Positions 17,516 through 50,815 of a DNA stretch of 64,000 nt are shown in pieces. A program made the position numbers and the translations under genes. The notes beneath the pieces were generated by a model. It saw only the letters and a program-made list of their open reading frames with translations. It made no database searches and had not been told where the DNA came from. Positions within the stretch are counted from its first letter, which is position 1. The number at the start of each line of letters is the position of its first letter. The stretch covers positions 248,001-312,000 of the forward strand of contig QPGO01000090.1 in the NCBI GenBank assembly GCA_008632985.1. Reading direction: 5' to 3'. This DNA comes from Psammoneis japonica (lineage: Eukaryota).

Positions 17516-17673
17516 GCGTCCTTTGGGCATAGATCCACTGCCACAGTTTGCCGAGTTCAACATCATTTGCTCGTTCTGAATTGAATCGTTCGTTCTATGC
17601 GGAGAACAGAGAAAATGTTTGGTCCTTGCTCAAAATGTCTAAGATAGCACAAGTTCTGGCATTCAGCCTGCTT

Positions 17674-27689: not shown

Positions 27690-30600
27690 GACGATGTGGT
27701 CTGGGTTGGTCATTTCCGGGTTGGGATGCGTTTGGCTCCCAGCTGGCCAATTGATTCCCTTTTTTCTACCATTTTTGGGTCATTCATTTCAAATGCTGGG
27801 GCGCCAGCCAGCCTTTCACGCAGCACCACATGTTGCTCACTGGGAGCCCTGTGCTGCACCTCAAGAAGAGACTCCACAAAGAATGTGCAAAAGGCTGAAT
27901 GTTGGAGTTTGACTCCAAAGCAAGAGGACTCAGACTCCATTGCTGTGCATTTCTGTAGCTCATGAGTCCCATTGAAGCCAAGTGCTGCCCATCCTGCGCC
28001 CAGGCTTCTCATTCTCTTGCTGACCAGCACGAGACACCTGGTGAGCTTCTTTTGGGCTCCATGGCATTTGATTGGCTGCAACATTGTCTGCACTTTGGCT
28101 GCTCATTTGCATCTCTTAGTCTTTTGTGACACCCACACTTTTGACTGGAGAGCTTTCATCAACTGCTCTCCAACTGCACATCAGTCTGCAAGCATGGCTG
28201 CTGCGCAACCTCTGAGCACTCTTTCCAAATGTCTGTGCAACACCTTGCAAGGACTGCCAACCCAGGTGGTGCACAGCTGCATTTGATGAGCTCAGTCAAC
28301 AACAGCACTTGTGTCTGTGTTTGGCATGTTGGTGTGTGTGTCTCAACAGTGCACGGTGCTCAGCCTGCGTCAACCCCAGCAGCAAATCATTTGTCTCTCT
28401 GTTTGTTGCACCAGAGACAAAATTTGATCGAGACACAACAAAAAATGGAGACAAGTGCAGAGAGACAGATGCAAAAAGACATTCCTGCAGACAGACAAAT
28501 GGAGGCAGTGACAAAGCCAACAGAGACATCAGAGACAAAAGCAGCAAGAGCAAAGAGAAGACAACTTTGTGGCCATTTCACCTCAATTGTTGCCACTCTG
28601 ACAACACAGTTGCTTGCATCACAAATCCTCATGCAGTGAAATGTGAGTGTCTGTTGCGCCGTTCATGGGGGGTGCAAAGTTTGGCCCACAAGCATCAAGT
28701 CTCATGGCCAGCTGTCACTTTTGCTGCAGCACAGTGCACGCTGCACACACATTTTTGGTTTTGTCTCCATCTGTCTTCATTGGAGACTGTTTTTTTTCAT
28801 TTGTCCATCTCCATCTGCCTCAATTTATTTCCCAACAGTTGGTTGGCCTTTGCTGACATGGTCAAGACAAAATGCCCAAGGTTCAAAAACAGAAGCAAGT
28901 TGCCAAATGAAAAGACTCCCTCACCCAACAATTTGGTGTGCACTCTGAGCAGAGACCCTTTTTTAACTCACCTGCATGGTGGCACATTTAAAGCAATCAT
29001 TTGTTCATTCTCAATGGCTGTTTTGCTGAAAAATTGTCACTCAAATGGGTGGGGTCGTGGACAAGTGTGAGCGTGGACAGCTTGTCAGAAAGTCTGTGAG
29101 AAAATTTGCCCTGTCTGTCCTGGCTGAAACTCTTTTTGCCATGCTCTCTCTCTTTCTCTTTCTCTTTAGTCTTTGCAAAGCTTTTTGCTTTTGACAGCTG
29201 AGAGCCAGCAGCTGACAGACAATGCAAAGCACCATGGTGCAACAAGGAAACTGCAAAGAGCAGAGATCACAATGAGGCCAAAAGCTGCAGTGGCAAATTG
29301 AAGGTCAAAAATGAGAAGGAAGAAACAAAACGAAGGTTGTCTCATTGCTGTTGCAGCTGCCAATGCTGCAGCAATGCCAACAGGAGACTGGTGCTGCATG
29401 CTTTCAGCACACTCAACCTGTTCATGCACCAGCAAAAAAGAGAAGCAGCCCCAGGATCACAGTGCTGGTGAAGAAAGTTGGCAACACCATGAAGCAGCAC
29501 CCAATGAAGCACAGCTGGTCATTGACCAACTTGGCTGACCAAATCTTTTAACAGAGACCAGTTGGTTTTTCCAACGCTGGCTGCAATGAGTTGCCAAAAC
29601 AAGCCAAAAGCACAAAGGGTGGGCTCCGCAGCTTCTCTGAAAAAAAGAGTGCTGAGATTAGAAAACAGAAAGGCTGAACGAAAAGAGCCGCACAGCTTTT
29701 CATTGGTGCTGGCAGAGTTGCAACACAAAATTGATTTGAGAGAAGATGTTGGGATCACTGTGTGAACAGGAGGAGCACTGGGACAAAAATCATCAGCTGC
29801 ACTTGTGCAGGGAAACTGAAAGCAGACACTGGCAACAAACAGCTCACAAAAGCTGAGAGAGAAAGCTTTTGGTGCTGGCTGCACAAATGGGGGCACAGAG
29901 ATTGGCTCATCAGCTTGCAAATTGCTTGTGTGCAGCCATGAGTGCGCTGGTTTTTGAACAGAAGATTCAGTGCAGCTGAACGAAAGAAGTGGAGAAAGTC
30001 AGCACATGAAGTTTTGGCAGCTGGCTGCCAAAATGATGGAAGTGACACTTGTCAACTTGGGCAAATCAATGTGTGCACACCATGGCACTGCATTCCAACA
30101 AGTGTCACTTTCTCCTTCTTTGGGTGTGCTGTGGCTCCCATCCATGATGTTTTTGTTGTCCTTTGGGTGGGCTGAGTGAGGATCTTTTGCATGGGTGCAG
30201 GCTTTGAGGCACCAGCTCATTTTTCAGCTTTGAATGTTGGGAGCCTTCTTTGCTCCTTTTTTGGAAAGGTTCAAAGCTGCGCTTGCCTCTTTTTCAAATG
30301 GGTGCACAAAACTGCACAGTCCAATTTTTGGGTGACAAAATTGCACCACTCACTTTTCAACCAAGTGTGCAAAATGGCACAGTCAGCTTTTCAAGTGGGT
30401 TCAAAAGTGCACCTTCTTCTTTTCAAGCAGGCTCAAGTTTGAAGTGCAGTTGGCTTCCAAAACTTGTCTCCTGCCAAACTGCACCTCATGTGCAGTGTGA
30501 GAGTTTTGCTCATCAATTGGTGTTGATGCACAAGCAACTTGTTGACAGTTGAAGTGCACTCAGACCGGCAATCATCCATGCATTAAAACACATTGGAGTC

Positions 30601-33330
30601 CTGAGCAGGCTGTCCTTCAAGTTTGCTTTAAAAACACCAATCATCAAGAACCAACCCACGCAAGCAAAGCATGTAAATCTTTGCACAGCCATCTTTGCTC
30701 CTTGCTGCGGAATCGAGAAAGAGCCACCCACCATTGCGATTCATTCTCTTGCCACATTCCTCTCAACCCACTCCCAACAAGAATGCTTGTTGTCCTTTTT
30801 GTCAGACAGTGATGCTGCATCACATTTTTTTCACAATTCTGGTTGCTGTTTGTCGCAGCACAAAGTCACAAAAGATTTCTTGTGCAACAGATGAGATTCA
30901 CTCGCATGGTGCCACGTCATTCCGCACAGCAGTTTTCACCACATCAGAACAAACAACAAACTGCTTCTTGCGTTCCTTGTCATTCAACAAATTCGAAGCG
31001 TGTGGGCGTGCAATTAATTGAGATTCACAGTGCTTGCCATGAGGATCTGCAAACCAAGCAGCTTGCCTCCACAAGTCACCTTTTTTGAAGAAAAACACTG
31101 GAGGCTCGGGTCTCCAGGGCCGGGCAAACTCATGAATCAAGGAAACAGCAAAAACACCCAATCCCAAATGGTTGCATGTCCTCGACTTTCCATGATCTCT
31201 GGGCACCTGGAGCTGTGCCATGAAAGCATCAGCCTCTTTGGCACTGTTGAACTGTGGCACCAATCCACGGTGGTGATCATCTTGTTCGGCAAGTTGACAT
31301 TCATCTGGAATCCAACGGCAAGCAACACGTTTGTCCAATGCCCAAATGTTGCCTTTTGGTTCATTGTCCAAATCAAGTTCAATGAAATGTGGCTGTTTCA
31401 CAACTTTGAAGCCGATTTGACCTGCGTCTTTTGAAGTCTCTTTGAACTCAAAATTTGGAAGCACCCACTTGTCGTCGTCATTGTCGTCACCATCTCGGTT
31501 GGCAAACGCAACATGTCCAAGCATTTTCTTGTTCTCTTTCCAAAGCTTTGGCATCCCATTGACCGTTTGTTGGATGACTTCATTGAAACCACTGATGTCC
31601 ACTGCATGGTGGCACACAACATCGTAAACTCCAATGAGGTTCTTTGGCAAGGTTGACTTGAAATGCCTGCCGGATCCATGCCACAGGCCTTCTGGACATT
31701 CGCACATGCACACCTCATCTTCCTTCAAGAGCCTTTCACAGTCATCCCTCATTTCTTGGAGCTCCTCCTCCTTTTTCTGTGTTTGGCATCGTCTTGCCTC
31801 CTTTGCAATGTTGCGACCTTCATCCATCTTGGGACAACACTCAAGACACTTTCCAACAGCCTGGTGTTGCTTGACATGCTCCACTGCTCCTTTCGGAATG
31901 CGCCCACATTCCGGATGGTTGGCACACTCCCATCCATTGAATGTTGTGTGTGGAGTGTCCCATTGAGTGACAGAAAAGTTGTCTTCTGTCTTTGTCTCAA
32001 GGCAGCTGCAGCACATTCTGGGCTCGGAAAGGAGAACAGCAAATTTTGCCTTCTTCTCAGCATGCTCTTTCTCTTGCTGCCTTTCTTTGGTGCAGCATTT
32101 CTCTTTTTCTTTTTCAAAGCACCAGTGGCACCGCGCTTCCTCTCCTTTCTTGGCTTTCCATTTTGACCTTGGTGAAATCACCGGCAGCAGTGTTGCAGTT
32201 GACGATGCACTGGAACATCCACTGCTTCATCTTCTGGACTTCAAAACATGGTTGACAAATTGCTTCCTCACCCTTTTTCGCTTTCCTTTTCTCACCCTTG
32301 GCAAAATCATCAGCTCTGGTCTTGCAGCAGCTGCATTCAAGCAACACGACCTGTTTGATGTGGTCGGGATGGGAGCCAACCTTTTGCTTCTTGTTGCGGT
32401 TGTTCGAAGCATGGCTTGGCCTCTTGTTGTCATTTCTTTCACTCATGGTGACTGCAGCTGTGTGATGGGGCCATGATGAGACTCTTGATGAAGATGCTCT
32501 GTGCTCTGCGATGGACGTCAACCCCACTGTGAAATTTTGTGGGTCCGTTGTGTTTTGAAAAATCCAACGAAAGCTAAAATCAGATCTGAGCAATTTCAAT
32601 GTTCCATTTTCCCACCCTTTTTCAAATTCCAAATTGCAGCTGTCCCTGAGAGACAGATCGCGTGATGCGTGATGCGCGGAATCAAATCTGCGACCTCATC
32701 GAATGATCTCCATGAGAAAAAGAAATGCACACGGGAGACAGTTTGTTGTTCTAGTTTTACCATGTCAGCTGCTGCATCACTGGCCCCGAGAGTTTGTCAT
32801 GCTCTGTTGCATCTGCAAGGCTTTGATGTTCACAAGACAGCCAAAGCTTTGTCTCATCCAACCCTTGACTGTGCCTGTTTGGACATGGAGGATGGCGCGG
32901 CACTGAACAAAAAGCAAGATGCCCAAGAAGGGATTCCACATGCCCTCAACAACATCAACTTTGGACAGACAGAACGATTGGTGAGAATCAATGGGTTTGA
33001 AACCAGTGATCTAGAAAAAAAGACTTGGAAGCTGTTGCACAGAACAAGCGAGTGTCCCGAAAAGCAAGACAAATGATCAAGTCACCGAAGAGTTGCTCGT
33101 CTCACCATGCGCTCTGAATCTGCTGACAGAGTTCTGCCAGACGGCATTGTGACACCAAAAGCAGAGTCTGCAGAAACAGCCCTTCCTGTGGCAGAGCACC
33201 TTGATGCCTTGGGTGATCGTGCAAACAATGTGCATGTCGTTTCCATGATTGAATCACCACAGGCCATGCTCAGCATGAAAGAAACATGCTCGGCGTGTCC
33301 GAGTCGAATGGATGCTGTCATTTTTGGAGG
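27690..33330. other. TpA- and CpG-depleted hypermutated domain 1
   Basis: No TA found by eye in ~28120-28825 or ~31627-32574; strong TG/CA excess. Confidence 0.9.
30898..32470 (-). pseudogene. Hypermutated gene with repeated CxxC zinc-binding units (Stc1-like)
   Basis: ECSCCKTRADDFAKGEKRKAKKGEEAICQPCFE, KAKKGEEARCHWCFE and CCSCLETKTEDNFSVTQW lie in two frames; Tyr nearly absent, Cys/His excess. Confidence 0.5.
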
Positions 33331-33720
33331 CGACGACTACGCGTCCGCTGTGGGTGCCACTAGAACAACGTCGAATGATGAGATGGAGTTTCCTCGAAAC
33401 TATTGCTTGATGCATGCGGCCGCATACGGATTGACTTTCGAGATGAAGAGCAGCTGGTTAGGGAATCATTAAGATCATTTCAGCAAGGCTTTTCTGGAAA
33501 GCAGGTTATACACCCAGCGCAGATTGCGCCGGTGCAAGAATCGTACTCACCAACAGAAGAATCAATCAAACATGCATCGGAAGTCGTCCGTGCCTTTGAA
33601 GAGCACCAAGAGGAAGGGAAGGGTGCGTTTAGCTTCAAAGGCCTGATGATTGACTTGCCAACGGTACTACAATACAAGCTGCTTCTAGAAAAAGCCCGTC
33701 TGATGGGACTTCACGAATAG
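32762..33720 (+). pseudogene. CitE/HpcH-HpaI (citrate lyase beta-like) gene with a degraded 5' half
   Basis: CLDMEDG, ERLVRING, DGIVTPK, MIESPQA, AVIFGGDDY, QGFSGKQVIHPAQI, GLMIDLP; frameshifts near 33.03-33.08 kb and ~33.43 kb. Confidence 0.8.
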
Positions 33721-33979
33721 CTCTCTCTAAAAGGTAGCCTTTACGGCACGAAGATACAGAATCTACTTATTCACTTTTCCAGTCTACCCTATGGAATTTT
33801 GAACCAGACGTTGCTCAACTTTGAAATGCGCAACATTTTGTTTCGACCATGCCTCCTCCTTCGCCGACCAGGATAAGATGGTCGGAAAGTGATCTCAGCC
33901 GCAAGACGATGATACTCCATGTTGCATGCCTGGAATGCCCCACCAAGCAACAGAAGCATAACGACCCATTCCAGACGCT

Positions 33980-35014
33980 TCATAGACCAGGAACAAAATG
34001 ATCGGGTCGCTTCCTTTTCCTACCAGCATGTCTGAAAGCAAATAGATCTGGCAAATCTTGAAGCAACGAGTAAAAAAGGCTCACAGTCGAGTCGTCCGTA
34101 CTGCTCGTCCCTACCCTGGCCAACACGTGCGCCCATAGACAAGGGTGTACGTTGTCTCGTGTCAACAGTTGCTTGCTCAGAAATTCCAAGATAATTGATG
34201 TCTCGTGGCGCCTTCCGTTTGAGATTGCACGATCCAATGGCGTGCGGCCACGCTCGTCGAGAGCATTTGCGTCGGCTCCGTGTTCGAGCAGCAACTTTAC
34301 CGTGCCTCCCCTGGCACAGTGTAACGGCGTGCATTCAGTTTCATCCGTTTCATTCACGCTCGCTCCATTCTGCAAAAGCGTGCGAGCCGTCTGAACTCTC
34401 CCACGTCTCGCAGAATGGTGAAGCGGTGTAAGATTTCCATATCTTGTCTTTGCATTTACGTCTGCCCCATTTCGTAAAAGAAACAAAATAATATCGCGCT
34501 GCCTTTCCACATCCGAATTGGTGACAATATGCAAAACAGTGTCGCCAAGGCTGTTTGTTTCGTCAACTCGGGCACCACCTGTCAGTAGAATTTGTGCGGT
34601 TGACACAAAGCCGTGCCTACACGCGAAGTGAAAGGGTGTTTCACGGTAGAGCTCACTATTTGCCAAACTTACTCCAGCGTCCAGTAACGCCTGAATCTTT
34701 TCGTCGCGGTCGCTTGTCGTCGAATAGAACATGACAAGAAAAATCGGTGAGGCATCATAATTGTCAGGAGACGTCGAATTGGGATTAGCGCCTAGTTGCA
34801 GGGCATGTCGCATATCTCCCGCAGTCCCTTGAATAATGGCCCTAACAAGGTTGCGAAAAAGAGTTGAAGGATGCAAAGGGTCCTCCATATTTGCCTTGAG
34901 GTGTACTACCGGTATGCTTACCGTATCATAGCTCACTGTCACCTGAGAATGTGCGTGCCGAGAGGCTTCCGACAGGTCGATAGGGGGATTTTGTCTCTTC
35001 CCCCACTGTTGCAT
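33980..35014 (-). CDS. Ankyrin-repeat protein (intact copy)
   Basis: TPFHFAC, GDTVLHI, TPLHHSA, TPLHCA, GRTPLDRA repeats; normal Tyr and TA content. Confidence 0.88.
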   Translation of the reverse strand: MQQWGKRQNPPIDLSEASRHAHSQVTVSYDTVSIPVVHLKANMEDPLHPSTLFRNLVRAIIQGTAGDMRHALQLGANPNSTSPDNYDASPIFLVMFYSTTSDRDEKIQALLDAGVSLANSELYRETPFHFACRHGFVSTAQILLTGGARVDETNSLGDTVLHIVTNSDVERQRDIILFLLRNGADVNAKTRYGNLTPLHHSARRGRVQTARTLLQNGASVNETDETECTPLHCARGGTVKLLLEHGADANALDERGRTPLDRAISNGRRHETSIILEFLSKQLLTRDNVHPCLWAHVLARVGTSSTDDSTVSLFYSLLQDLPDLFAFRHAGRKRKRPDHFVPGL

Positions 35015-35259
35015 GCTTTGTTTCCGTTATGATAGATGGAATTTAAGTGCCGAAAATCATATATGTGTTTTGCACCATCGGTTCGGGGGGGGGGTTAAAA
35101 ACTCTTTGCTGACTCACCGCCCGACACACCATCGGGTTTTGGAGTTTTTGATTCAGTACAGCAAGAGTTGCAGCGCCTTCCTTCCAAGAAGTAGGAGATA
35201 TAGGGCCCTACCTTGTAAAGATGGGGAACGGCCCGAGTTCCGAGTTTACACCCAAAGAC

Positions 35260-36585
35260 TCAAACATGCATCGGAAGTTGTTGATGCCTTTCAAGAGCAC
35301 CAAAAGGAAGGGAAGGGTGTGTTTGGCTTCAAAGGCCTGATGATTGACATGCCAACAGCACTGCAGTGCAAGCTGCTTCTAGAAAAAGCCCATCTGATGG
35401 GACTTTGCAAGAGCAGCTCTCTCCAAAAGGCAGCCTTTGTGGCACGAAGACACAGAATCCACTTGCTCACTTTTCCAGGCTGCCCTGTGAAATTTTGAAC
35501 CAAATGTTGCTCAACTTTGAAGAGTGCAACATTTTGTTTTGACCATGCCTCCTCCTTCGCTGACCAGGACAAGATGGTCGGAAAGTGATCCAAGCAGAAA
35601 GACAACAACATGAGGCTGGAATGCAAACACCAAGCAACAGAATCAGAATGACCCACGCTGAATGCTTCACACACCTGATTGGGTTGCTTCCTTTTCTGAC
35701 CAGTCGGCCTGAAATCAAGTGGACATGGCAAATCTTGAAGCAACAAGCAAAACAACGAGCTCGCAGTCAAGTCATCTGTGCTGCTGCTTGTCCCCACCCT
35801 GGCCAACACGTGCACCTGCAGACAAGGGTGCACGTTGTCTCGTGCCAACAGTTGTTTGCTCAGAAATTCTAAGACAATTGATGTCTTGTGGCACCTTCCT
35901 GATGAGATTGCAAGATCCAATGGCGTGCGCCCATCATTGCTGTCGAGAGCATTTGTGTTGGCTCTGTGTTCAAGGATCAACTTCACTGTGCTTCCCCGGG
36001 CACAGTCCATGCAACGGCATCAACCCAGTGTCATTGGTTTTATTCACACTCACTTCATTCTGCAAAAGCATGAGAGCCGTCTCAACTCTCCCACTTCTTG
36101 TGGCAAAGTGAGTCGGTGTGCAACCCCCATCCGTTGTCTTTGCATTTGTGCCTGCTCCATTCCTCACAAGAAACAAAATCATTGCCACTCTTTCCTCATC
36201 CAAAGATGTGACATCATGCAAAATAGTGTTGCCATTGCTGTTTCTTTTGTCAACTTGGGCACCACCTGAGAGTGGAATTTGTGCAATTGACACCTTGCCA
36301 AACCTGCGCGCAAAGCCAAAGGGTGTGCAGCCAAAACATTCTGTTGTCAAACTTGCTCCGGCATCCAGCAACACCTGAATCTTTTCCTGTGGTCGTTCAC
36401 ATGTGGATTGCATGTGACAAGAAAAATTGGAGTGGAGCAACCAGCAAGACATGGCGAATTTGGATCAGCACCTGGTTGCAGGACATGTTGCACATCTCCC
36501 ACAGTTCCATCCATGACAGCCCTCATTGGGCAACAAAAAAGAGTTGGACATGTGAAAGATCCTCCATGTTTTGCTTGAGGGGTGT
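35260..36585. pseudogene. Tandem duplicate of the CitE 3' end plus ankyrin gene (copy of ~33566-34905), hypermutated
   Basis: Colinear alignment starting TCAAACATGCATCGGAAG; differences dominated by TA->TG/CA and CG->TG/CA; frameshifted ankyrin ORFs. Confidence 0.9.
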
Positions 36586-36639
36586 GTGGAGCGCCAATGG
36601 ATGGTCATTGACCACTCAGTGGTCAGTGATTGCATGAAT

Positions 36640-37590
36640 TCCACATGAAACAGTCATGTTGGAAAAAACGCGTTGAACAACAAGTGCATTTGTGCGATGT
36701 GCTGTTTTGGTGGCAAATTGGAAAAAAAGAGTGTCTGTGCACCTCACTGCAGCCCCAAAAATGGCATGAGCCATCAAACACAATGGTCATCCGTGTCACT
36801 GGTGCAGTGGCCACGCCACATTGCCGCTGCAACCCCGGTGGTGTGGTGGTGCAGCAGGGCCCTGCGCACTGTGCACACCGCACAGGCAATGCAGCATGCA
36901 ACAGCACACACCCACACCCACAAAGAAAGACAAGTGGTCAATGCTCCTCATAGGCCTGGTTCATTGACCACTCAGTGGTTGGTGATTGCAGACTTTTTCA
37001 TGTTGGTTGGGCAGTCGGGGGGTTGGGCAGTTGGTTCGTCTGGATTTGAGAGTGTGTCCCTTGGATTTTGGAACAGCATGGGTTGTTCAGTGCAAATGAG
37101 TTGTTGCTTGGATTTGTGGAATGAACATTGAGGACATTGGAGGTTGTGGTGACATCCTAAAAAATTGACAAATTTCCTGTGACGGGTGCATGGAACGGTT
37201 TTTCAGGAGAGCTTGAAAGTGCTGCAAAATTGGGATTGCCGGCGTGGCATGTTGAAAAATGCACTGAGCTTTGAACAAATGGAGTTTGTCATGAATTGTG
37301 CGTGAAACAGTCACATTGAAAAACAATGTTGAACAACAAGTGCATTTGTGTGATGCGCTGTTTTGGCAACAAATTGGGAAAAAAAGAGTGTGTCCGTGCA
37401 CCTCACCACAGCCCCAAAAATGGCATGAGCCATCACATGTGACAGTCATCCACGTCACCAGTGTGGTCCCCCCGGCAGTGCAGCAGGGCTCTGTGCACTG
37501 TGCGCACCATGCAGGCAATGCAGCGCGCAATGGCACACACCCACACCCACAAAGAAAGACTGGTGGTCAATGCTCCCTGCAGGCCTGGTT
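36640..37590 (+). repeat. Two ~300-bp direct repeats (~36640-36960 and ~37300-37590)
   Basis: Shared GAAACAGTCA...GTTGAACAACAAGTGCATTTGTG...CAGCCCCAAAAATGGCATGAGCCATCA...CACCCACAAAGAAAGAC. Confidence 0.85.
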
Positions 37591-40500
37591 TTGTTTTGAG
37601 GTCAAGAGAGGCAAGGTGCTTGGCTTTTTGCTTTTGAACCATGAGCCGAGCCACAAACCGCAAGTTGCACTCTCTGTTGCCCTCTCTGCTGCTAGAGTCT
37701 CTCTGCTGCCAGAGCTCTGGCATGCAGTGGCTGCTCTCTCTGACTCCAGCAGATGCTGCACAGTGGACAGAGTGGTGCCAGCACAGAGAGGCCTCCAGCA
37801 GCTGGGGCCCTGCTCTGGTCAGTGGCTCCACCAGCAGAGCACCACACCACAGTGCTGGCCACAGCAGAGCATGAGTCATCAGTCGTCAGCACCATTCGCA
37901 ATCCACAAAAAATCACCAAAACTCCCCCCACTGTTGTGCCACAGCAATCTCTGGAATTGTGCATTGCAGGAAAGGTTGAGGGGGGGGGGGGGGGGGGGGG
38001 CATTTTTAACATGCTTTGCATGAGGCAACACACCACCACATTTTGAGTCTTCTTGCTCTCTCAACACAGCACACTGCACTCTGCTGCCACTGCACAAGGT
38101 GAGCACATGTGCTTGGAAATGTTGTGAGTGCCTGGCTCTCTCTGACCAACATCCCTTCTGATGCTGGTGCCTCATGCAACATTCTTCAAACCCTTTCTTT
38201 TGGGAAAAAGAAGCAGTGCATTGGCAGGCTGAAGACAGCAGGCACCAAGCTCAAAGAAAGACTTGCCCAAGCCACAAGGGGAAGCAGCTGGGAGGCCCCA
38301 AATGGTGGCAAGAAGAAAGCCAGCAACAACATTGCAGCTGAGGATGTTTTTTTATGATGACCCAATGCTGTCATCAAGGACAGCAATTGCAGCTGGAAAT
38401 GCGGGAAAAATGCAGAACTCTCCATCAGTCCAAGTTTGGCTTTGCCAAGGGATTCCCCAAAATTTTTGGGAGTTGCCACCTTTTGCCATGCTCTTTTGCA
38501 GGGAGCATGAGTTCCTGGAGAATCACCACAAATGCTGCTTTGTCATGTGTGTGCTGTGGAAATGAACTCAAATTCAGGCAGTGGGAATTCCCTGCATTTC
38601 TCCTGCATCTTAACCATGAGCCTGGGTCATGTGAAAGTCACACGCAGGTTGTCACACTGTGGTGAACTGCATTGTCCCCCGTCAGTGCCACAGCCTCACA
38701 CCATCCAACAACTGTTGTGTTGAGCTTGTTCCAAAAACATGTCACAGCAACAGGAGGGAAAAGGTTGGTGGTCAATTTTGAAATTTTATTGTGAGCATTG
38801 AGAAATCTAATGCTGAACATGCCATGCTGCAAGTTCAGAAACAATTGCACAATTTCTTGCCCAAAGCAGGGCTGCTGATTTTGGCACTTTGAGCAGATGC
38901 CCATTCCACATAGAATGTGGCATTCAAAATCTCATGTCAGTTGTCCCAGTCATTTCATCAACTCACCCTTGTGTGGCAGTGGGCCATGTGATCTGTGCAA
39001 GTTGAACATTTTTGACTTCTGGCACATTTTCTGCAGGCGCTGCATGCGCGAAGCTCAAATTGTGTGCCCAAAGCAACAGCTGCACCTTTGTGCTGGAAAT
39101 CATGCAATTGTTCCCAAATTTGCAGCACCGTCATCTGTTGCAATGATGCCAATGGAAAAGAGCAACAGCATTGGATGCAGCAAAGGCAGTGCCAGGTGAC
39201 ACAGACCTGAAAACACAAATGTTCCATTTTCCCTCCCTTTTCACCTGTGCGCAAATGAAAGATCTCATCATGCTGGCCAGGAAACAGCTTGCACAACTTC
39301 AAATTTCCATGTTGTCATTTCTTCCCCTCAAAAATTTCCTCACTGATGACATGATGCTCAGGACACCAACAGGGAGATTGGCACATCACTCACTCTTTCA
39401 AATTGACCACATGGCACCACCTTGCAAGCTCTCCTTAAAACACAGGAAAGTGCAAAAAGTCGCTCAAAGAAGAGGAAAGCAATGTTTGCAGTGTGTGTGC
39501 AAAGTTGACAAAGCTTTCAACAGCAGGAAAGACCTCATTGTGGCATTTGGTGCCAAGCAACTCTTTCAACAGATTTTTGTTTTGAAAGACAAGAGCCAAA
39601 AAAAATTGTCAAAAAACATGAGCACAGCTTTCAGTGCACCAGGCCAACACTCACAACGGCAATTTTTTTCTTCTCAGTTGTTTTTTTTTCTGCCAAACGT
39701 CCATTTTTTCTGCCAGCCCTGCCACTGAGATGGTGGGCACATGACATGCGCAAAGTGGCAGAGCCATGCAAACTTGACAAGCATGACTCAGATTCAGTGC
39801 CAACTTGCTGTTGGTGCGCTGCAGCTGGAAACCATGGAAACCACCTCACCATGGCAACTCTGTGGTCCCTGTTTTCTCAACGGCATCACCTTCAAGAGCC
39901 GCAACAATTGATGATGTGTTGCTTGCATCTTGTGAACTTGTGTGTGGCAGAGTTGACATGTGGGAGTGCAACAGGCTCATTGTCAACTTTTGTTGTCAAA
40001 AAGTTTCACTGCAACCAATCAGCTTCAAAGCATGACAAGGTGTGCACATGTGAAATCAACTGTGAGCTGTCAAGACATGTCAGCGTTATGGTGAGTTGTG
40101 AGTTTGTGGCTCTGTTGGTGGAGCACATTGCATTCGCGGTCACCATTGTCATTGCATTTTGACAAGTCATGGAAAATTTGAAATGTCCAACACTTGTGTT
40201 GGCAGGCATGTGATTGAACACAGGTTCTTCACATGGTGCAGTGCTTGACACACAGAGCACATCCAATTTTCACAAGCAATCATGGGCTCATTTCATCAAC
40301 ATGTGGTGCATCAGCACAGATTGTCAAATGCAAAATGTGCTGACATCAACATGCAAACATTGAGCTTGCCACCAACAAACAAAACAGTGGACACTTGGCA
40401 AAAAAATGGGTGTTTTTTGTCTGTCAATGGAAGGCATCATTGCCGAACAAGCTGAGCATGGCATTGAAGCCAACGACAACACAGAAGCAAGAGAGATTTT

Positions 40501-42247
40501 CTGCACTGTGCTACGAGAGCTGCTTCTCCAAGCAACATGTGTGCCCTGCAGCTCATGGGGGCACCGCTGCTCCTTCTCTTCTTTGTGCAAGAAAGCCATG
40601 AGGACCTCATCTGGATCATGTGCCAAGATGCTGCCAGTCTGGAGAGTTCTTGGCCTGGGAGCACCATGTGGCAATGCCCTCCTCTCAACATGCCCACCAA
40701 AAAGCACAAATCCAGGGGGGTCCAGTGCTGTGCTGTTGTCATGTTGCCCCCCCCTTCCTTGCTCTTGTGCAGCCAGTGCTTGTGGCTCACATGCCTGGGG
40801 GGAACAAAAAATCTGAGCTCTGCAACTGAGATGTCACACACATGGAAATCACAGCTGAGTGCTTTTTTCTTTTTTCTCAGCATCCTATGAATGACTTGAG
40901 CCAAGGCACTGGCTCTGACCACCAAAGTACATCCCACACGTGTGCACAAGTCAACCAACAAGTGTGGGTCGACCGCCTGGTGCGCGACATTCGGGAGTGA
41001 TTGATCACACTGAGGGTGATGTGCTCTTAAATTTGATACGTCTGTACGTCGTCTCACGGATCGTGGGGTCTTCGATGCGCGCACCCAGCACTTAGACTGC
41101 TTACTCACTGGCTATTGGCGATGGCAAATCCAAAATCCAAGTTCACGATGATGACAAAGAGTTGGAGAGGTCGTCATCAGCGATGAAATTGGCACTGAGC
41201 ATGGGGTAGATATTGTGAGTGACTCTTCTCTAGCACCTGCCATGTGATCGATTAATTTCTGCAAGTGATGTTGAAACAAAATACGCCGTTTACCTGTCGG
41301 ACTTGCGATGAGGCTGACATACCTCAATCGATGTCGAGAAGATTTTGAATTCAATGACTGATGCTGTTGTTTCATTTGATCGAGCTTTGTATCCATATAC
41401 TCGAATCAATTGTTTGCTCACGCTATGTGCTCTTTTATCGATAATGTTCTTTTTGATGCTGTTCGACCAAAGGTATAAGGTATGTTACTTGCATCCCACA
41501 TCCTTGGGTTACGAGCACGAGTTCATTTGTTTTGACTGTGAAGATCCAATTCGATCGTGACGTTACCCATTGTGTGGCAGTGGTCGATAATCAATATCAG
41601 TCTTTAAAGTTCTCTGAGTCTACAAAATGAGCATGCAATCGCAGGATGAAAATGCAATGTGCTTAAGCATTTCTCTCTAGCTAGAGACTTACGCGTTTGT
41701 TCCTCCTTTTTGTACCGATTCTTCTTCTCTCACTGTAGAGACATAATCCTGGCGTCGCCGTTGAGGGCAAACCTGGTAAGACTCGTTTTAGTTTGCTCTA
41801 GTAGATTGTTTCAGAACCCTACAAACTTGGCTATCGCATAGACTTTTTGGTCCATAATGTGACGGTTTGATCATGTCGGGAAGAGTAGTTCCTTGCCATT
41901 CTCTCCGAGTGCGGAGTCAGATACACTGTTGACGCATTAGCACTATCATAGAAAGGCAAACACCCAAACTTCTGAATGAAGCAATGATGGTTTCACATCT
42001 TTGACCGACTCACACTCTTTTCATTTCGTTTGACGGATAAAGTTGAAAACATGGAATGATGGACGTTTGACCGTGCAACTTTGACGTGAGAAAGGATGTG
42101 TTGAAAGATTGCTTTCTCACATTATTCGTACGTGGAACCAGTGCGGTTTTTGGTGCAGCCTTTTCCACTGTGCGATTGCAAGCGAGCGGCGCAATTTTCG
42201 GCGACGATACAAGTATGAACACCGAGCAACACTGCCTCACTGCAAAC

Positions 42248-43053: not shown

Positions 43054-43773
43054 TCACCGCAAAGGAGTTTCACATAAGAAGGCTTTTCGAGGACTTCTGC
43101 CACTACTTTCGTTGATTTCACTCAGCAACCGCTCGCTTTCATGTTCTGCACGATTGGCTGCTGCCAGGTCAGGCCACTGAGACTCACAAAAGTCTCTCCA
43201 AATCTCCACGGCCACATCTGGCGAAGCCGTATGGTGTTCATACTGCTCCTTGGAACACACGTGCTCGTCTTTCTCTAGACACTCCTTTGCCCATAGAGGA
43301 GACCGTCCCCACTCATCTTCAGCACAAACATGAGCGGGCGATGGTTCAAGAATGATGTCCTCTGTCCATAAACAAAGAGGTCTCTTTTCTAGAAGCTCAG
43401 GTTTCTCGGCGAGACAGTCTAACGTATGCAAGACTCGACCGCACGGAGCTCCGGCTCGTCTCTCCTTTTGAAGAGGCCACCCAACGACCAAACACGCCAC
43501 GTTATTCTCCTTTACTACCGTATGAATCTCATCTACGATAGCCTTATCGAGCTTTCGCCGGTTGTTGCGAGTCTCGTACTTCATTTGAATCGCTTCCAGC
43601 TTGATGGGTGGAGACACTTCTCTTCGAGACGGATGAGGTGCCAGAGCCATGCCAATACGGTCGCTGCCAATGTCGAGCGATAGCGCGTATCCCCCAAGAT
43701 GTTTCCAGTCTAGAGCATTGGCAACTCTGGATGGTGTCGTTATGAACGTTGTCAATTTGCTTACCGTTCTCAT
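43054..43773 (-). CDS. YqgF/RuvX-like RNase H-fold protein
   Basis: LSLDIGSDRIGMALA and LVVGWPL...GAPCGRVL motifs. Confidence 0.75.
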   Translation of the reverse strand: MRTVSKLTTFITTPSRVANALDWKHLGGYALSLDIGSDRIGMALAPHPSRREVSPPIKLEAIQMKYETRNNRRKLDKAIVDEIHTVVKENNVACLVVGWPLQKERRAGAPCGRVLHTLDCLAEKPELLEKRPLCLWTEDIILEPSPAHVCAEDEWGRSPLWAKECLEKDEHVCSKEQYEHHTASPDVAVEIWRDFCESQWPDLAAANRAEHESERLLSEINESSGRSPRKAFLCETPLR

Positions 43774-44240
43774 GGTGTCTTTTTCTTCTGCGTTGCATGT
43801 GGGAACAAGAAGAGACGAAACAAACAGAAGGCCCGAACGAGAATTTTGTGACCGAATTTTTTGAATTCGCGCGGTGTTCGGTTTCTGGCCACACGTCTGA
43901 TGTCACGAATGTCACAGAACGTGCGACAGCTTGTCAGTCTGATGTGGTGTGTGGTGCATGACTGACTAAAAATGACGTGTCAACCACGTTTGTCTGTGCA
44001 CTGTGCACCCATGCCGACAAACAAATGAAAATGGGTTATCAGCCATTGAATTGGGAAGCACCGTTTTGTTTCCAAAATCGATGCTTCTTTCATCTTCTGC
44101 ATTGTCAATTGACATGCTTTGTGCCTCTGGGGGTGTCAGATTCATGGTTCTGAAGAATGCCATCACTTTGTCACAAGAAGGGCGGCCTTTTTTCTCTCCA
44201 AGAGGAGGACAGACTGGCTGTCAGCAGAGCTGGGGGCTGT

Positions 44241-44516
44241 TGACAGAAATTGAAGGCAAATGGCAAGAATTCAAACAATGACTCCTTACTGCTGTCTAAA
44301 TGGCAGATGAGTCTCCGCTCAGAGACCGTTGCAGGAGCCGAAAGACGTGTGAGTCGGTGCAATCGGGCTACTGTCATTGTTCTTGTGAGCCTTGTGGCTC
44401 GAAAGCAAACTGCATCGCGCGTGAACGCGCGGAGCTAAAGCACACAAAACTGTGCGCGGTAAACTAAACAGCGCGCGACACTTCGCGCGCATCCAAATCC
44501 TGTTCAAATCCTGTCA
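44241..44516 (-). repeat. 3' LTR (TpA-converted copy)
   Basis: TGACAG...CTGTCA; 11 transition differences from the 5' LTR. Confidence 0.95.
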
Positions 44517-47500
44517 CTCCCCAGTTTGCTTGAGGAGCCACAGAAACAGATTCGACTTCGGATGGAATGAAGTTCCAGAACATGAGGGGGCGGAGAAGGT
44601 CCCAGATTTGGGAGTGACCCCAATGCTTGCTGAGAATGTCAGCAGGGTTGCGGGAGCCTTCGATGAAGTGGAACTCAAGGTAACCAGAGGCAATTGCCTC
44701 ACGCACACGGTGGAACGACAGTGCGGTGTGTCGCTTGTGTAACTTGGAGTGCGGGATGGTGGCACTGTCTACAACCGACTTGTTGTCACCGAACATGCAA
44801 CTGACATTGCGGATCGGGACGCCAAGGCAGCGCAGGGTGATGCGCAGGTCAACAATCTGCTCAACACAATTCCTTGCGGCAACAAATTCAGATCCGCAGG
44901 TTGCAGTTTCCACGGTGGCTTGTTTCTTGGAGAACCAATCAGCCGGGAATTTGTTGAGGAAGTGGAGCATTCCCATGACAGAGCGTCCGGTGAGCATGCA
45001 ATGGTGCAAGTTTGCGTCGACGCAGTGGGTGGCAGTGACGAACTTGCCAAGGGGCAGTGGAGCGTCCTTCGGGATCATCTCTTCTGCTTCACCATGCATG
45101 GAATGCATCCATTCATGGGCCGGAGCAGGGAGATCCGAACAGTCAGGCTCTTCCGTGCGAACGCGGAGAGCACCGTGTCGCATCTTGGAGAGGCACCCAC
45201 ACACGCGTTTGGCACGATCCAAGTGGCCTTGACGGGGTGCAGCTCGGAAGCTAGAGAGTGACATGACAGCCGTGGCAATGTCAATTCGACCAAGGGACAC
45301 TGCCCATTGGAGTGAACCAACAAGAGACTGGAACTTGTGAATGCCATCGGGTCCCAGCAGTTCGGAAGTGTCCAGTTCGGGGTGGTCACCCTTCTCTAGA
45401 GGTGACAGGGCGTTGGTGGCAGGTTTCTCCCCAAACAGTCGGGCGCAGCTGTCGACCATGCGCTCGATGTACTTGCGCGGAGACAGGCACAAGGTTCCGT
45501 CGGGGTCCCGGGAAAAGTCGCAACCCAGATGGAACTCAATGGGTCCCACACCCTTGAGCTTGAACTTGCACTTTTCCGTGAGAGCATCGACGAAAGATTG
45601 GGGGTCCTTCATGGCAATGGCGAGGTCATCCACATAAACGGCAATGCATTCACAGTGGTCGCCGTTCCTGCGCATCCAAATGTCGGGTTCGGCGCGGCAG
45701 GGGAAGAAGCCTTCAGCTCGCAGGCAGTCGGCGAAGCGCTCGTGCCAGCGGAGACCGGAGCTGCGCAGTCCACACAGTGCCTTGTGGATGACAAGGATGT
45801 GTCCTTCGAGTTTGCCAAATTCGGGTCCAGCTGCAATGTAAAGCTTCTCCTTGGTGGTGGCTTCAAGGCAGGCATTGCCAATGTCGGTGGCCCATGTCTC
45901 CAGCTCGTTGAGTTCGGCCAGGAAAATCATCAGCCGAAGGCCACGGAGGGAGACTGCTCCGGAGTAGACACTGTCGACAGGTACGTCCGTGAGGTGCCCG
46001 TCGGCTACGAGTCGTGCCTTGTGGCGACCGTCGTGTTTCACGTCGTACACCAGGTGCACTCGGATCTTCTTGTGTCCCGCAGGAGGAGTGGAAGACTTGA
46101 AGGGCCCGCAGTCATGGAAGACTTCGTATTCGTCGAGTTGGTCCATCTCGAGATTAGTTGCGTCTCCCCACTTGCGGTTGCCGTTGCGTTTGTCTAGTGA
46201 CATGGCGTGTTTGTAGTTCCGGGGAACTTCGCATCCGTACTTGCAGCGAGGTGCAGTGCGGAAGGAGCGAAGCTTGGCTTGGTTGGCCATGCGAAATAGC
46301 TTCTTTTGGCGCCTTGCGATAGTGCGGAACCGCTTCCAGCCATCCGTGTCGAGGAGTCCGTTCTCTCGTGCATAGATGGCACAGGTGACGGGGTCGTCCT
46401 TGGCGATGATGGCAAGAGGCTCGGACGTGATCTCCCCACTTTCCCATTCAAGCATGATGTTGTAGCTTGAGCCTTTCCAGGTTGGGTCGTGAGGCTTCAG
46501 AGGTCCTTCGTGTGATGCGATGCGTCGAAATTTCCAAATGGTGGTGTCTTCGTCTTCTTGCTCAATGTGATTCATGATGTCATTGTAGGCAAGGACTTCC
46601 TCGTGTTCATCATTGTTGACAGAGCAGACGAACTCAGTGAGCTCGGGATTGCCGTTCACTTTCCATTCGTGGTCTTCGACGGCCTTGACGATGCGAGCTC
46701 TGTGGCGTTGTCCGTCCTCTTGTGGCTGCATGAGGAAGGTACGTCCAATGATGTCTTGCGGATCGAAAACTGGCATCTTGGGTGTCCTGATCTCCCCATC
46801 AGGAGAATCGACGGGGTTGTCGTCATGGCGAGATTTGATGATGGGTTCAGGTGGCTCCCCATCAGGAGGATCAAGACGCAGGTTTCGAACGGCAGGATCG
46901 GGGGTGGCGGAGTGAACGTTGGACCGGTGGAGGATGTTCTGAGTCTCGTCAGATAGGATCTTGAAGGTCATCTGGTGGCCGACGTGCTCAGCAATGCCAA
47001 CAAAGCGTCCACGCAACTCACGGGATTCGGGCGGCCAATCGGAGTCATCGAGGTGGAAGCACACTGGTTCCCACCAGTGAAAGCGAAGCAATGGGCTGAT
47101 GTCCGGGGTGGATCCAGTGAGAGTCTCGAGGGGCGTGCGCCAGTGGAGACGTGGGGACGCTGTGTGGTTGAGCATGAAGCACACGCACATGAGCGCCAGC
47201 AGTGCCGCAGACGTCGGTGACGGTAGACTCGGTGCCAACAAACAGTTGGGCGCTGGTGCAACCAGAGTCGACGGCCGGGGTGTCGGCGCAAACGGTGTCA
47301 GTGGCGACAGGCTCGTTGCGGCGGTGCACATTAAGGGCGGGGTTGGGTGATTTGCAGGCCTTGCGAAGGTGTGCACCGGCGGGCATGCGGGCGCACTGCG
47401 TGGTGCAGTCAAAAGTGCGACGGACCGCATCGACAGGCAGGAAGCCAAAGCAAGGCCGAAGAGACTCGAAGGGGGGGTCCTTGGGCTGCACAGTGCGCTC

Positions 47501-49906
47501 CGGAGGTGGAACGTCATCGCCATTGGGGTCAATCGCATGCAGATGACACTCGCAGAACACGTCGTCGTTCGGAATGAGGTGATCATCGAGGGCGGATGCG
47601 TGATCGGCAGACAAGGAAGCGGACAAGATGGTCTCGTTGACAACGACACGGTGACGGCAGTTGCCGCATTCGTCAAACAGGTTGGCAGTGGGATCGTCCT
47701 GCAGGTCAGAGATCGCGTCGCACCACTGGTCGTCGTCAGTGACAGAGTGATCGAGGACGGAAGGGTCCCATGTGTCATCACCGGTGAGGATGACATGGGG
47801 CAGGGTGTCCCATTCGGCGTCAGTGTAAGGTCGCATGGCAACACAAGGCAGGCCAGCCTTGATGTCAATGGGGATGACACAGCCATCAGGAGTGGCAATG
47901 CGTTGCAAGCCGTTGGGCACCTTGACAGAGCGATCGTTGACATCCTGTTTGTGCCATTCGAGCTGGCCGCAGGAATGGATGGTCTTGCCCTTTCCCGTGC
48001 ATGCGCACTGATGGAGGATGGCGATGACGGGACCACGCTGGGTCTCAATGACGGCACCAGCGGTGACAATGGGGATGTCCACCAATTGATGATCGTCAAT
48101 GCCCTGAACGTCGACTTGGCGAGAGGTGCGTGCAATGACGTGAACGTCGTCGCCAGCAATGCCGCCGTTGGCCCCACGATCGACTGGAGCGCCAGTGCGT
48201 GTGGAGCGATGAGCAGAGGCAGAGCAAATGACATTGTGGTTGTTGACGCGGCGGCAAGTGCGGCCGTTGAGTTCTGTGTCATCTGCAGGAGCTGGTGGGG
48301 CAGAGGAAGTGGCGGATGGCCCCGGTCGACTGGCATTGGGGGCTTGGTTAGGTGACAACAGACGTTGCAGATCACCGGGTGGCAGTGGCTTGCGCTTGGT
48401 GAGGTGCGCCAGGATGGGATTATCCGAAGTGGCGTCCACATGTGTGGCGGAGTCACCACAGTCAGCAGGAGTCGTGTTGGACAAGTTGACATCACCGTCA
48501 CTCCCAGGGTGTTGGTCGTGAAGGTTGGCCGTAACAGACTCATGGCAGTTGCTGGCTCGCGGGTTGCGGGGAGGCGGACGAGAGTGCTCAAGGATGATCG
48601 CCTTGGAGGAATCGGGCAACGAATCCCAGAGCCGTTGGTGGTCGGGAGGGAGACGTCTCCATTGGACACCGGTGAGGCTGGGACCGCGGGTGCAGGCAGC
48701 ATTGGCTTGAAGGACGTCAACGTCGCTGTCAATGTCGTAGAACACATCGTCGGACGGTTCCTCGGAGCAAACGTCGTGTGCGCATGTGGCGCGTCGGGGA
48801 GCTCAAGGTGTCGTCTTGGGTTGAAACGTGCTGTCGTGCTGAGCTGCCGCAGAGAGGAGCAAGCCACAGCATTGATCGCATGTGAGGCTCTTGCCACTCT
48901 GCGCACGATGCTGATCAGCTTGGTTCTTGACAGCACGGAGTTCCTCGACAGGGTGCATGGCATTCTCGAGCATGACGCGCTTCTGTCCTTCAGAGAAGTG
49001 GTCGCTGGCGGGGATGAGTGCCTCGCACTTGCGCAACTGATCTTGCCAATGAAGGATGAACCCGTGGGTCGGACCTTTCCAAGTGCCATCACCAAGACGT
49101 GCGGTGGTGAGGTGCGTGAGCAGGGTGGAGGACTCGATGGATGCACGGGTGGAGGCAAGCGCGCACTCAGACAAGGAGCGGCAGACGGTCTGTGCGTCAG
49201 AAGACCCCACATTTTCGCGAATGAGAGCCTTGCCCTTGTCGGTGAGAAGGATGCGTTCGAAGACGGCGAACATGTGCTTTTGCTGTTCAGCAAAGAGCAG
49301 TTTGTCTTCAGGGCTGGTCGGTTTGTACGACGAGTCTAGAACGCACTCGACGTCTTGGGCACGGGCTTGTGCCACAAGTGAGGTGTGCCAAGTGTGCCAC
49401 TGCTTGTCGGATTTGAGAGCCGTGAAAGCGGTGGGATCACGCTTGATGCCTCGCTTGAAGTCTCGCACCGGGTCGCGTGCCTTGGTCAGGTTGGTGACAT
49501 GTGGAGGTGCAAGGGGTGAGCTGCCGATGGACACAGAGGACATGCAGTCCGGGCTGAGGCGGCAGGCAAGGAACTCGTCATGCGTGAACAAAGAGGAGTC
49601 GTTGGCAACGTCAAGGCCTTTGTGTGCTTTGACAATGCACAGGCTAACTGGCGCTGCTAACATGTTCTCATAACCACGGGGCAAAGGGATTGCATTGGTG
49701 CCGTTGTCGCACTCAAGCGAGTCGATTTGGGACGGCATGAACGTGAACAGTTCCTGATGCGAGTCCGTGCCGTCTTGGGCCAAAGCCAAACGAAGAGGAC
49801 TCCCAGCACCTTGGGCAAGCACGGTTCCAACAACGTGCTCGAAACCATCGGTTTGTTGCTGACGAGTGAGAACCATGGCAGACAAAAGTGGTGTCAGCAC
49901 AATCAA
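44464..49906 (-). pseudogene. gag-pol polyprotein remnant (gag 48803-49906; PR/IN N-part 47045-48745; IN C-part, RT and RNase H 44464-~47200)
   Basis: FKRGIKRDP (gag), VDRGANGGIAG (protease), RHKARLVADGH, AVYVDDL, WFSKKQATVE, NPADILSKHWG; frameshifts and an integrase-core deletion. Confidence 0.93.
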
Positions 49907-50815
49907 TTCTGGTTGGGAAGCGAAGGCAGACTCAAAACTTGGGTGAGAATGGACTTGACTTGAAACAGACTTGACTTGAAATCTTGAACTATCTTAAAAT
50001 CAGAAGTCGCCGGGCTTTGTTGTCCCGTTCGTTGTCAAGTGCTAAACTTCCCATCCGGTCCGTAGAGTTGTGCCGGCACGTCCGAACCCGCAGCCAGCGG
50101 CGCTTTGGGTTGCTTGCGAGCGGAGCAGCGGGTTGTAAACCCCTGCAGGCAAGCTGACTAGAGGTGGACAAGACCCCCGAACTGTTCTTGTTTTATGTCG
50201 GTTGGATTTCCCGATCAGGCTGGCCAGTTGACGCAGGCGTTGGGCGCTGTGGACGAACGAACAAACGCGGGAAAGCACCCTCGCCCCAACGCAGGCTGTG
50301 ATCACGGCTGCTTGCTCTCACAGTCGTCCTCGTGGACCTAGTAGAACTGTAGAGCACCAGTAGTCCGGGGTAGATCAGGTACAATGGACTCGGTGTGCTT
50401 GTAGAGTGGTGGCAAAACCGCAGTCCGAAGGGTGGGTACAGGTTCTTGGCCGTGAAGATATGTATATATATATATGTCTTCAGCGACGAAGATCCTTGAA
50501 TATGTAGGGTTCTTGACCGTTAACCGATGAATAGGTATATCAAGGGATGAGGATCAAGGATAGACTTGGATATGACCGTTGAATGTATGTCTTCAGCGAT
50601 CAAAGGCAGTATAATGAATCCAGACATCCAGCGGCAAGGAGACTTGACGGTGACGTTAACTTCCTGCCGATGCCCTGGTATTGGATGCGCGTAGACTTGC
50701 CGATGTATGTAGAATATATACGGAGGTCCACGTAGAATTGAAATAGCGTCGTTGGTAAATCAACGACGACGATGGCGGTTGCTCAATGGGTTGACAATGA
50801 GCAAGACTGTTAATC

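Follow-up and report, generated by a model that had tools for sequence, protein, structure and literature searches.

The 64,000-nucleotide stretch of the Psammoneis japonica genome analysed here (assembly GCA_008632985.1, contig QPGO01000090.1, positions 248,001 to 312,000 of the forward strand), which we call the window and number from its own first base, carries near its middle two copies of a unit made of the tail of an HpcH/CitE-like gene, an intergenic stretch and most of an ankyrin-repeat gene. The window is eukaryotic, with few introns, and its open reading frame (ORF) for an ABC1 kinase shares 69% identity with a protein from the diatom Epithemia clementina. An earlier note on this DNA had described a tandem duplication in which only one copy is hypermutated, and the short strings that it quoted from the two copies are all found where it placed them. 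The features around the duplication are listed here, with observed-to-expected dinucleotide ratios given as o/e.

32762–33720, forward strand: HpcH/CitE-like gene (Pfam), broken in the window, its 5' part hypermutated up to about 33240.
33566–34904: copy 1 of the duplicated unit, consisting of the HpcH tail, intergenic DNA and the larger part of the ankyrin gene; normal composition, 49 TA, 83 CG.
33980–35014, reverse strand: intact ankyrin-repeat ORF of 344 amino acids; Ank_2, E = 5e-49, 165 bits (Pfam).
34905–35259: unique spacer, containing the ankyrin 5' end and the DNA upstream of that ORF; normal composition, TA o/e 0.84, CG o/e 0.79.
35260–36583: copy 2, hypermutated; 4 TA, 24 CG, 140 TG, 149 CA and many indels.
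35291–36452, reverse strand: ankyrin pseudogene of copy 2, in two frames (35291–36010 and 35970–36452); Ank_2, 21 and 74 bits.

The duplication is real. Local alignment, which sets the boundaries of the copies, extends over 1357 columns, with 1048 identities, 258 mismatches (164 transitions and 94 transversions) and 51 gap columns, or ~80% identity over ungapped columns. The copies are, however, not strictly head to tail but are separated by the unique 355-bp spacer, for which there is no counterpart 3' of copy 2 even when the sequences are coded as purines and pyrimidines. Alignments of the spacer with the DNA after copy 2, and of the DNA before copy 1 with the spacer, both scored below the mean of shuffled sequences. 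With no such counterpart of the spacer, copy 2 lacks the first 37 codons of the ankyrin gene and the region upstream of it. A self-BLAST of the window recovered this pair, the long terminal repeats (LTRs) of a retrotransposon, a ~657-bp repeat (36633–37590) and a few short matches, and no further large repeat of the duplicated unit in the window.

The asymmetry between the copies to which the earlier note had pointed is confirmed over the entire alignment: TA or CG in copy 1 stands opposite TG or CA in copy 2 at 90 sites, against 6 sites in the opposite direction (sign test 2.5e-20). Written as copy 1 > copy 2, these 90 sites comprise 21 TA>CA, 17 TA>TG, 29 CG>TG and 23 CG>CA, the TpA products being symmetric with respect to the strands (21 CA vs 17 TG). 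Only the TpA half of this signature had been seen before, and both the CpG half and the 5.75-kb block to which copy 2 belongs had been missed. Copy 2 keeps just 1 of the 49 TpA of copy 1, with 38 now reading CpA or TpG, and 16 of the 83 CpG, with 52 now TpG or CpA, whereas all other dinucleotides of copy 1 are kept at 56–81%; in total, copy 1 and copy 2 have 49 vs 4 TA and 83 vs 24 CG. Outside this signature there are ~160 further differences (roughly 12%), and the duplication itself must therefore be old.

Copy 2 is only the left end of a much longer depleted block, and there are four such blocks in the window, which we delimited using a 500-bp composition profile together with the list of TA positions:

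27770–33337: block A; TA 3.1 per kb, TA o/e 0.044, CG o/e 0.31; TG and CA together make up 91% of pyrimidine-purine steps.
33338–35247: island of normal composition; TA o/e 0.62, CG o/e 1.00; 77 TA observed vs 78.4 expected.
35248–41000: block B, 5.75 kb, with copy 2 as its left end; TA o/e 0.047, CG o/e 0.24.
43771–49989: block C, depleted in TA only; TA o/e 0.15, CG o/e 0.90; it includes the 3' LTR and the bulk of the interior of a Copia element together with 470 bp of flanking host DNA.
51092–55500: block D, starting with the base directly after the LTR; TA o/e 0.047, CG o/e 0.25.

Per block, 14–44 TA are observed (44 of them in block C) vs 181–255 expected, with Poisson P of 1e-58 to 1e-76. 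The density of pyrimidine-purine steps is constant throughout the window (233–257 per kb), and in blocks A, B and D only the shares are shifted, TA going from 17% to 1.3%, CG from 23% to 6–7.5% and TG+CA from 60% to 91–93%, with similar numbers of TG and CA per kb. A constant total with shifted shares is as expected for transitions at TA and CG alone. The edges are sharp: block B begins after the TA at 35247, the last to be retained, and before 35279, where the first converted CpG lies; this interval brackets the start of copy 2 at 35260, and on the other side the block reaches 4.4 kb past copy 2. The island between blocks A and B consists of the ankyrin ORF with about 230 bp upstream and about 640–740 bp downstream of it. 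Copy 1 keeps an intact ankyrin ORF, as the earlier note had stated; its suggestion that selection preserved copy 1 is, however, not sufficient. The non-coding flanks of copy 1, the spacer and the intergenic parts keep normal TA and CG as well, and codon selection is therefore not enough to explain the state of copy 1.

For the blocks other than B no partner was found in the window, even in a search with 30-mers coded as purines and pyrimidines, which recovered only the known repeats, and in sequencing run X1 block A is carried by an unbranched contig of 17 kb with single-copy depth. Long ORFs fill the blocks in all six frames, because the loss of TA eliminates TAA and TAG codons while no new stop can arise from it. 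When the 54 stop-to-stop ORFs of at least 100 amino acids in blocks A, B and D were scanned against Pfam, HpcH alone scored above its cut-off, and three other matches (E = 0.02–0.05) stayed below the curated cut-offs. The ~657-bp repeat, present twice inside block B, is a member of a very abundant high-copy family: the summed depth of X1 contigs is 5,485–19,949 over 36716–37000 vs ~65 nearby, with many joints. Among the surviving TA of blocks A, B and D the commonest context is TTAA (13 of 49, raw counts without correction for context frequency), and TTAA might be less susceptible to the TpA change.

Which of the two states is derived? Four lines of evidence agree that copy 2 is the derived, mutated copy: composition, coding capacity, outgroups for the HpcH tail, and another version of that gene. 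In composition copy 1 (TA o/e 0.56, CG o/e 1.04) matches the ordinary DNA of the window (38.7 kb; 0.59–0.60 and 1.00–1.04), whereas copy 2 (0.04 and 0.32) resembles the depleted blocks. The Ank_2 domain gives 165 bits in copy 1 vs 74 + 21 bits for the two pieces in copy 2, which lie in different frames. A search for homologues of the ankyrin protein returned generic repeat matches only (27–43% identity) and no orthologue usable as an outgroup. Polarisation with an outgroup, proposed in the earlier note, could be carried out in the HpcH tail with 24 homologues, taken from the upper part of the 150 best matches in a search of 1.84 billion representatives. Four residue differences there stem from signature changes (copy 1/copy 2): Ala/Val (GCG/GTG), Ser/Gly (AGC/GGC, after a T), Val/Ala (GTA/GCA) and Tyr/Cys (TAC/TGC), and at these positions the copy-2 residue occurs in none of the 24 homologues. 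The copy-1 residue is found in some or most of them at the Ala/Val and Val/Ala positions; at Ser/Gly the closest homologue has Ser and the commonest residue is Thr, and at Tyr/Cys no homologue has Tyr, with Phe in the two closest.

The second version of the HpcH gene allows the same question to be asked of block A. It was found on a 1007-nt contig of run X2 (contigs of runs X1 and X2 were used, out of three runs from one sample and one study, none of them recorded as RNA), and it differs from the window by 50 substitutions, by an additional base after 33014 and 25 additional bases after 33428, and by the absence of 33048–33129, 82 nt that in the window resemble an intron (GC..AG). The X2 version can be read without interruption over 300 codons to a TAG at 33718, whereas the window version as it stands contains six stops. 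The counts cover 33 differences in 32782–33236, beyond which there are 27 more; in these 33, window TG/CA is opposite TA in X2 11 times and opposite CG 9 times, with one case in reverse; the others are four in two CA-vs-TG doublets and eight of other kinds. The X2 version, ~2% diverged from the window at other sites, keeps its TA, while the 5' part in the window has lost nearly all of them. Against the consensus of the 24 homologues, the part of the window gene inside block A differs at 17 of 51 conserved columns, 7 of which are undone by reverting TG/CA to TA/CG (1 in the reverse control), and at 5 of these 7 sites the X2 version agrees with the consensus (Arg, Arg, Tyr, Arg, Arg). For the island part the count is 29 differing columns out of 91 conserved ones, of which reversion undoes 1, as does the reverse control; the two parts differ in the proportion of columns explained by reversion (Fisher p = 0.002). 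The direction TA/CG to TG/CA is thereby established with an outgroup in the HpcH gene, an independent case ~500 bp to the left, and polarity is shown for copy 2 as well as for the right end of block A. The contigs with the two HpcH versions have depths of ~60 vs 64, which do not separate an allele from a paralogue.

The depleted state is not an assembly artefact. Contigs of X1 show 0 differences from block A in 281 nt (at the end of the 17-kb contig, depth 64), and 4 substitutions and 2 single-base indels from copy 2 in 1420 nt (depth 65). X1 is possibly the source of the assembly, and this agreement shows a consistent reading of the bases rather than independent support for the locus; run X2 covers only 32747–34951, not the spacer or copy 2. 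All four X1 substitutions in copy 2 fall on CG/TA–TG/CA steps, two per direction, and may be recent events or assembly differences. Three island positions (33468, 34650 and 34671), one of them TA in the window vs TG, read otherwise in the contigs of both runs, at full depth, and these mismatches are either assembly differences or another haplotype.

Timing is provided by the young retrotransposon that overlaps block C:

44241–51091, reverse strand: Copia-type LTR retrotransposon (RVT_2, E = 9e-26), with LTRs at 44241–44516 and 50816–51091 and a 5-bp target-site duplication, GCTGT, on each side.
49990–51091: undepleted part of the element with its 5' LTR and leader; TA o/e 0.89.

The two LTRs of such an element are identical at integration, and the differences between them therefore arose in DNA after integration. 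In this pair, with 276 nt in each LTR, there are 11 differences, 10 of which are TA in the 5' LTR vs 6 TG and 4 CA in the 3' LTR, and all 21 CpG are the same in both. Changes at 10 of 16 TpA, vs one other change in 552 nt (2 x 276), amount to an excess of the order of a hundred-fold, which is an indirect estimate and not a measured rate. The 470 bp of host DNA next to the changed 3' LTR hold 2 TA vs ~19 expected from the 41 TA per kb of normal regions. The direction from TA to TG/CA is in this case suggested by the depleted interior of the element, by its depleted host flank and by the polarised cases elsewhere. The LTR pair shows that the process follows domains rather than homology, greatly outpaces ordinary substitution and is separable from the loss of CpG. 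Within the element, a frame of 1,582 codons is open on the reverse strand (44464–49212), but it is protein-like only in its C-terminal part, with RVT_2 and its YVDD motif kept; the first ~640 residues, rich in Pro, Ser, Thr and Ala, have the appearance of a wrong frame that stays open because TA is lacking. Neither a gag nor an integrase family was found at E ≤ 0.01, and a tblastn comparison of three frames of the element with the rest of the window gave a single, meaningless match (E = 0.5).

We hold the descriptive part of this picture, that is the signature, its polarity, the blocks and the timing from the LTRs, with great confidence. Our explanation, which we consider quite probable, is that copy 2 is a promoter-less, truncated duplicate lying in a domain of DNA-level, dinucleotide-specific transition hypermutation that is targeted to domains and not to homologous pairs. 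Fungal repeat-induced point mutation (RIP), the frame in which the earlier note had discussed the pair, would read the same data the other way round. RIP, in Neurospora and other fungi, makes TpA from CpA, changes both partners of a duplication and needs homology; here C-to-T changes at CpA would have hit copy 1 and made its TpA, with copy 2 keeping an ancestral TG/CA-rich state. A comparison of two sequences, with TA vs CA/TG at 38 sites, has indeed no inherent polarity, and many diatoms encode a RID-related DNMT4, whose function is not known (PMC9998398). However, TA and CG in copy 1 are at the level of the ordinary DNA of the window, with no excess, T-to-C changes making 52 CpG in copy 1 would be needed in addition, the intact ORF and the higher Pfam score belong to copy 1, the outgroup residues favour copy 1, and the 5' part of HpcH independently gives the polarity TA/CG to TG/CA. 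Both the chemistry and the copy are wrong, since it is TpA and CpG that were destroyed and copy 2, not the TA-bearing copy 1, that was changed, and we find this explanation hardly credible. It is also very improbable, although marginally less so, that the apparent A-to-G changes were produced by ADAR-like RNA editing followed by reverse transcription, or by base-calling artefacts at modified bases. Some long-read base callers can be misled by modified bases, which is a point for the artefact. ADAR has a preference for a 5' U (bioRxiv 10.64898/2026.01.13.699255). Yet the LTR differences arose in DNA, the DNA of the host flank is changed too, the strands are equally affected (21 CA vs 17 TG), the copies differ also by indels and transversions, and the k-mer contigs of X1 (depth ~65) have a clean TG or CA at each site, which a strand-dependent miscall would not give. 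For the LTR pair an ADAR-edited retrocopy is contradicted, since the LTRs differ from each other and the host flank is affected.

Targeting could be absent altogether, if old, methylated, non-functional DNA had drifted to a mutational equilibrium under CpG decay and a genome-wide bias from TpA to TpG/CpA that is countered by selection in genes alone. CpG decay is ordinary in methylated repeats, normal DNA of the window is already poor in TA (o/e about 0.6), and blocks A, B and D are nearly equal in residual TA (3.1–3.2 per kb) and in CG, as if at equilibrium. But non-coding DNA outside the blocks (the spacer and the intergenic DNA of island and normal regions) keeps normal TA, and drift would not account for block edges that are sharp to tens of bases, for a hundred-fold-order excess confined to one LTR, with 10 of 16 TpA changed vs one other site and none of 21 CpG, or for an HpcH 5' part that lost nearly all TA while a version about 2% diverged elsewhere kept them. 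We therefore consider untargeted drift improbable. A trigger based on homology, RIP-like but with another chemistry and acting one-sidedly, in which the truncated duplicate was recognised and mutated and the process then spread to neighbouring DNA, we judge unlikely, if a little less so. For it speak the left edge of block B, which falls in a 32-bp interval (35247–35279) containing the start of homology, the second, unmutated version of the window's HpcH region in the same sample, the high-copy repeat that forms part of block B and the retrotransposon that makes up a block of its own. On the other hand, block A lies on an unbranched contig of single-copy depth and lacks a partner in the window, also in purine/pyrimidine coding, and where partners exist they are untouched (copy 1, the 5' LTR and the second HpcH version), with the two LTRs treated differently. 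Targeting by region or chromatin state instead of homology pairing, which the earlier note had offered as one possibility, is in spirit what the data support, with block B extending well beyond copy 2, three blocks without a partner in the window and only one LTR changed.

Several points nevertheless weigh against domain-targeted hypermutation as we have formulated it. Block B has its left edge where homology starts, which could point to some involvement of homology. Polarity at the LTR sites comes from their context, not from an outgroup copy of the Copia element. The duplication is old, and its ~12% of other divergence does not fix the date at which copy 2 was hypermutated. The silence of the affected chromatin is presumed. 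A rule that active DNA is spared has to accommodate the TA-poor host flank of block C (43771–44240), which extends to 43773, the first ATG of a RuvX/YqgF-like ORF; promoters are therefore not always spared. Finally, the unannotated parts of blocks A, B and D could be of foreign origin with an inherent bias; as a source of copy 2 itself such foreign DNA was considered and dropped.

What mechanism could act in this way? We lean, with some reserve, towards an enzymatic process directed by chromatin, presumably silent chromatin. TpA would be converted to TpG or CpA on either strand within kilobase-scale domains with edges sharp to tens of bases, and in older domains conversion of CpG to TpG or CpA would be added. 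That the loss of TpA is far faster than that of CpG and that the two components are separable is evident from block C, where TpA is lost without loss of CpG. The TpA component might be due to an enzyme aimed at silent chromatin that deaminates adenine in TpA, as proposed for Bigelowiella natans; since TpA is self-complementary, deamination of A to I on either strand would give both TpG and CpA. Modification of thymine at TpA, leading to mispairing with G, could be an alternative chemistry with the same footprint, indistinguishable here. The idea comes from hydroxymethyluracil, which in dinoflagellates prefers TpA. The CpG component would be the deamination of 5-methylcytosine in DNA methylated by a diatom DNMT5-type system, and DNMT5a-dependent CpG methylation of transposable elements has been described in diatoms (PMC9998398). 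Copy 1 would escape by lying in the 1.9-kb island, which matches the extent of the intact ankyrin gene with its flanks, and that it is spared is most simply read as protection of an active transcription unit.

The present case belongs, in our view, with the recently described TpA hypermutation, of which B. natans provides the closest known case (Mettrop et al., bioRxiv 10.64898/2026.01.13.699255). There, T/A>C/G hypermutation restricted to TpA affects an integrated region of a giant virus (nucleocytoplasmic large DNA virus, NCLDV) and a virophage region, each of tens of kb or less, with the large NCLDV region transcriptionally silent; mutation-accumulation lines, a subset of which acquired such changes de novo, gave about 6e-7 changes per site per generation, about a thousand-fold above background, and adenine deamination was proposed, with an ADAT2-like candidate named. 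In both systems nearly all changes are T>C or A>G within TpA, with CpA or TpG as the product (here 10 of 11 in the LTR pair, and 38 of 49 TpA in copy 2), and both strands are hit (here 21 CA vs 17 TG in copy 2 and 6 TG vs 4 CA in the LTR). In both the process is regionally confined and far above the background rate, here in four sharp-edged blocks and with only an indirect estimate from the LTRs, and the long-term footprint is loss of TpA with gain of CpA+TpG. The differences are also clear. B. natans is a rhizarian (chlorarachniophyte) and P. japonica a stramenopile, a diatom; TA o/e is 0.45 in the B. natans NCLDV region, whereas here it is near saturation at 0.05; the targets here include a copy of a duplicated host gene, a pseudogene of the host and a Copia element, and not only viral inserts; three of the four blocks have also lost 70–75% of CpG; and the process is deduced here from sequence, in contrast to the mutation-accumulation lines in B. 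natans. Hypermutation from A:T to G:C restricted to TpA is thus known from one earlier report, in a chlorarachniophyte and on integrated viruses only, and in the full-text literature, a scope in which subscription journals are largely missing, we found no report of TpA hypermutation in diatoms or other stramenopiles; the SPLASH preprint brings up both diatoms and hypermutation, but in connections that have no bearing on this pattern.

Like RIP, the process introduces transitions regionally at high density, inactivates duplicated or mobile DNA, strongly prefers particular dinucleotides and leaves a skewed dinucleotide footprint. It runs, however, in the opposite direction, as the mutated copy here has lost TpA (49 to 4), it spares one partner (copy 1, the 5' LTR, the second HpcH version), and it appears to affect single-copy DNA, as in block A with its contig of single-copy depth and no partner within the window. 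The CpG decay of transposable elements through 5-methylcytosine (PMC9998398) resembles what is seen in the presumably silent, repeat-like DNA of blocks A, B and D, to which the CG>TG/CA loss is confined, but it cannot explain the loss of TpA, and block C has TpA loss without CpG loss.

A few features elsewhere in the window deserve mention. A full-length DUF2254 membrane protein is encoded at 9777–11132 (reverse strand, E = 5e-108) in a eukaryotic context; the family is mostly bacterial, and the gene may be an old horizontal transfer. An inverted repeat pair (3395–3486 and 7743–7832; 92 bp, 96% identity) has its arms 4.3 kb apart, and a 1007-aa ORF at 17674–20697 (reverse strand) has an N-terminal AAA_16/STAND-type NTPase domain.

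What is new here is the TpA signature in a second eukaryotic supergroup, at saturation, with sharp edges, on a retrotransposon and on host gene copies, and separable from CpG decay. It has practical consequences: the long spurious ORFs in such blocks will be miscalled by gene predictors, and repeat finders will miss the blocks. For the genome itself, a hypermutated copy can no longer recombine with its partner or be recognised as such. The LTR pair, the duplicated gene and the two versions of one gene form a natural experiment for dating and measuring the process and for the search for the enzyme. We tentatively suggest, and it may well turn out otherwise, that this is a diatom genome defence that is the chemical mirror image of RIP, in which an enzyme acting at silent chromatin would rewrite essentially every TpA on both strands, ~hundred-fold above background, without making stops, alongside the decay of methylated CpG, and would halt within tens of bases at active genes. 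Its action would be copy- or even allele-specific, which we propose because one sample holds both a hypermutated and an untouched version of HpcH. If the mechanism is shared with Bigelowiella, it would represent an ancient DNA-editing immunity across the whole SAR (stramenopile, alveolate and rhizarian) group.

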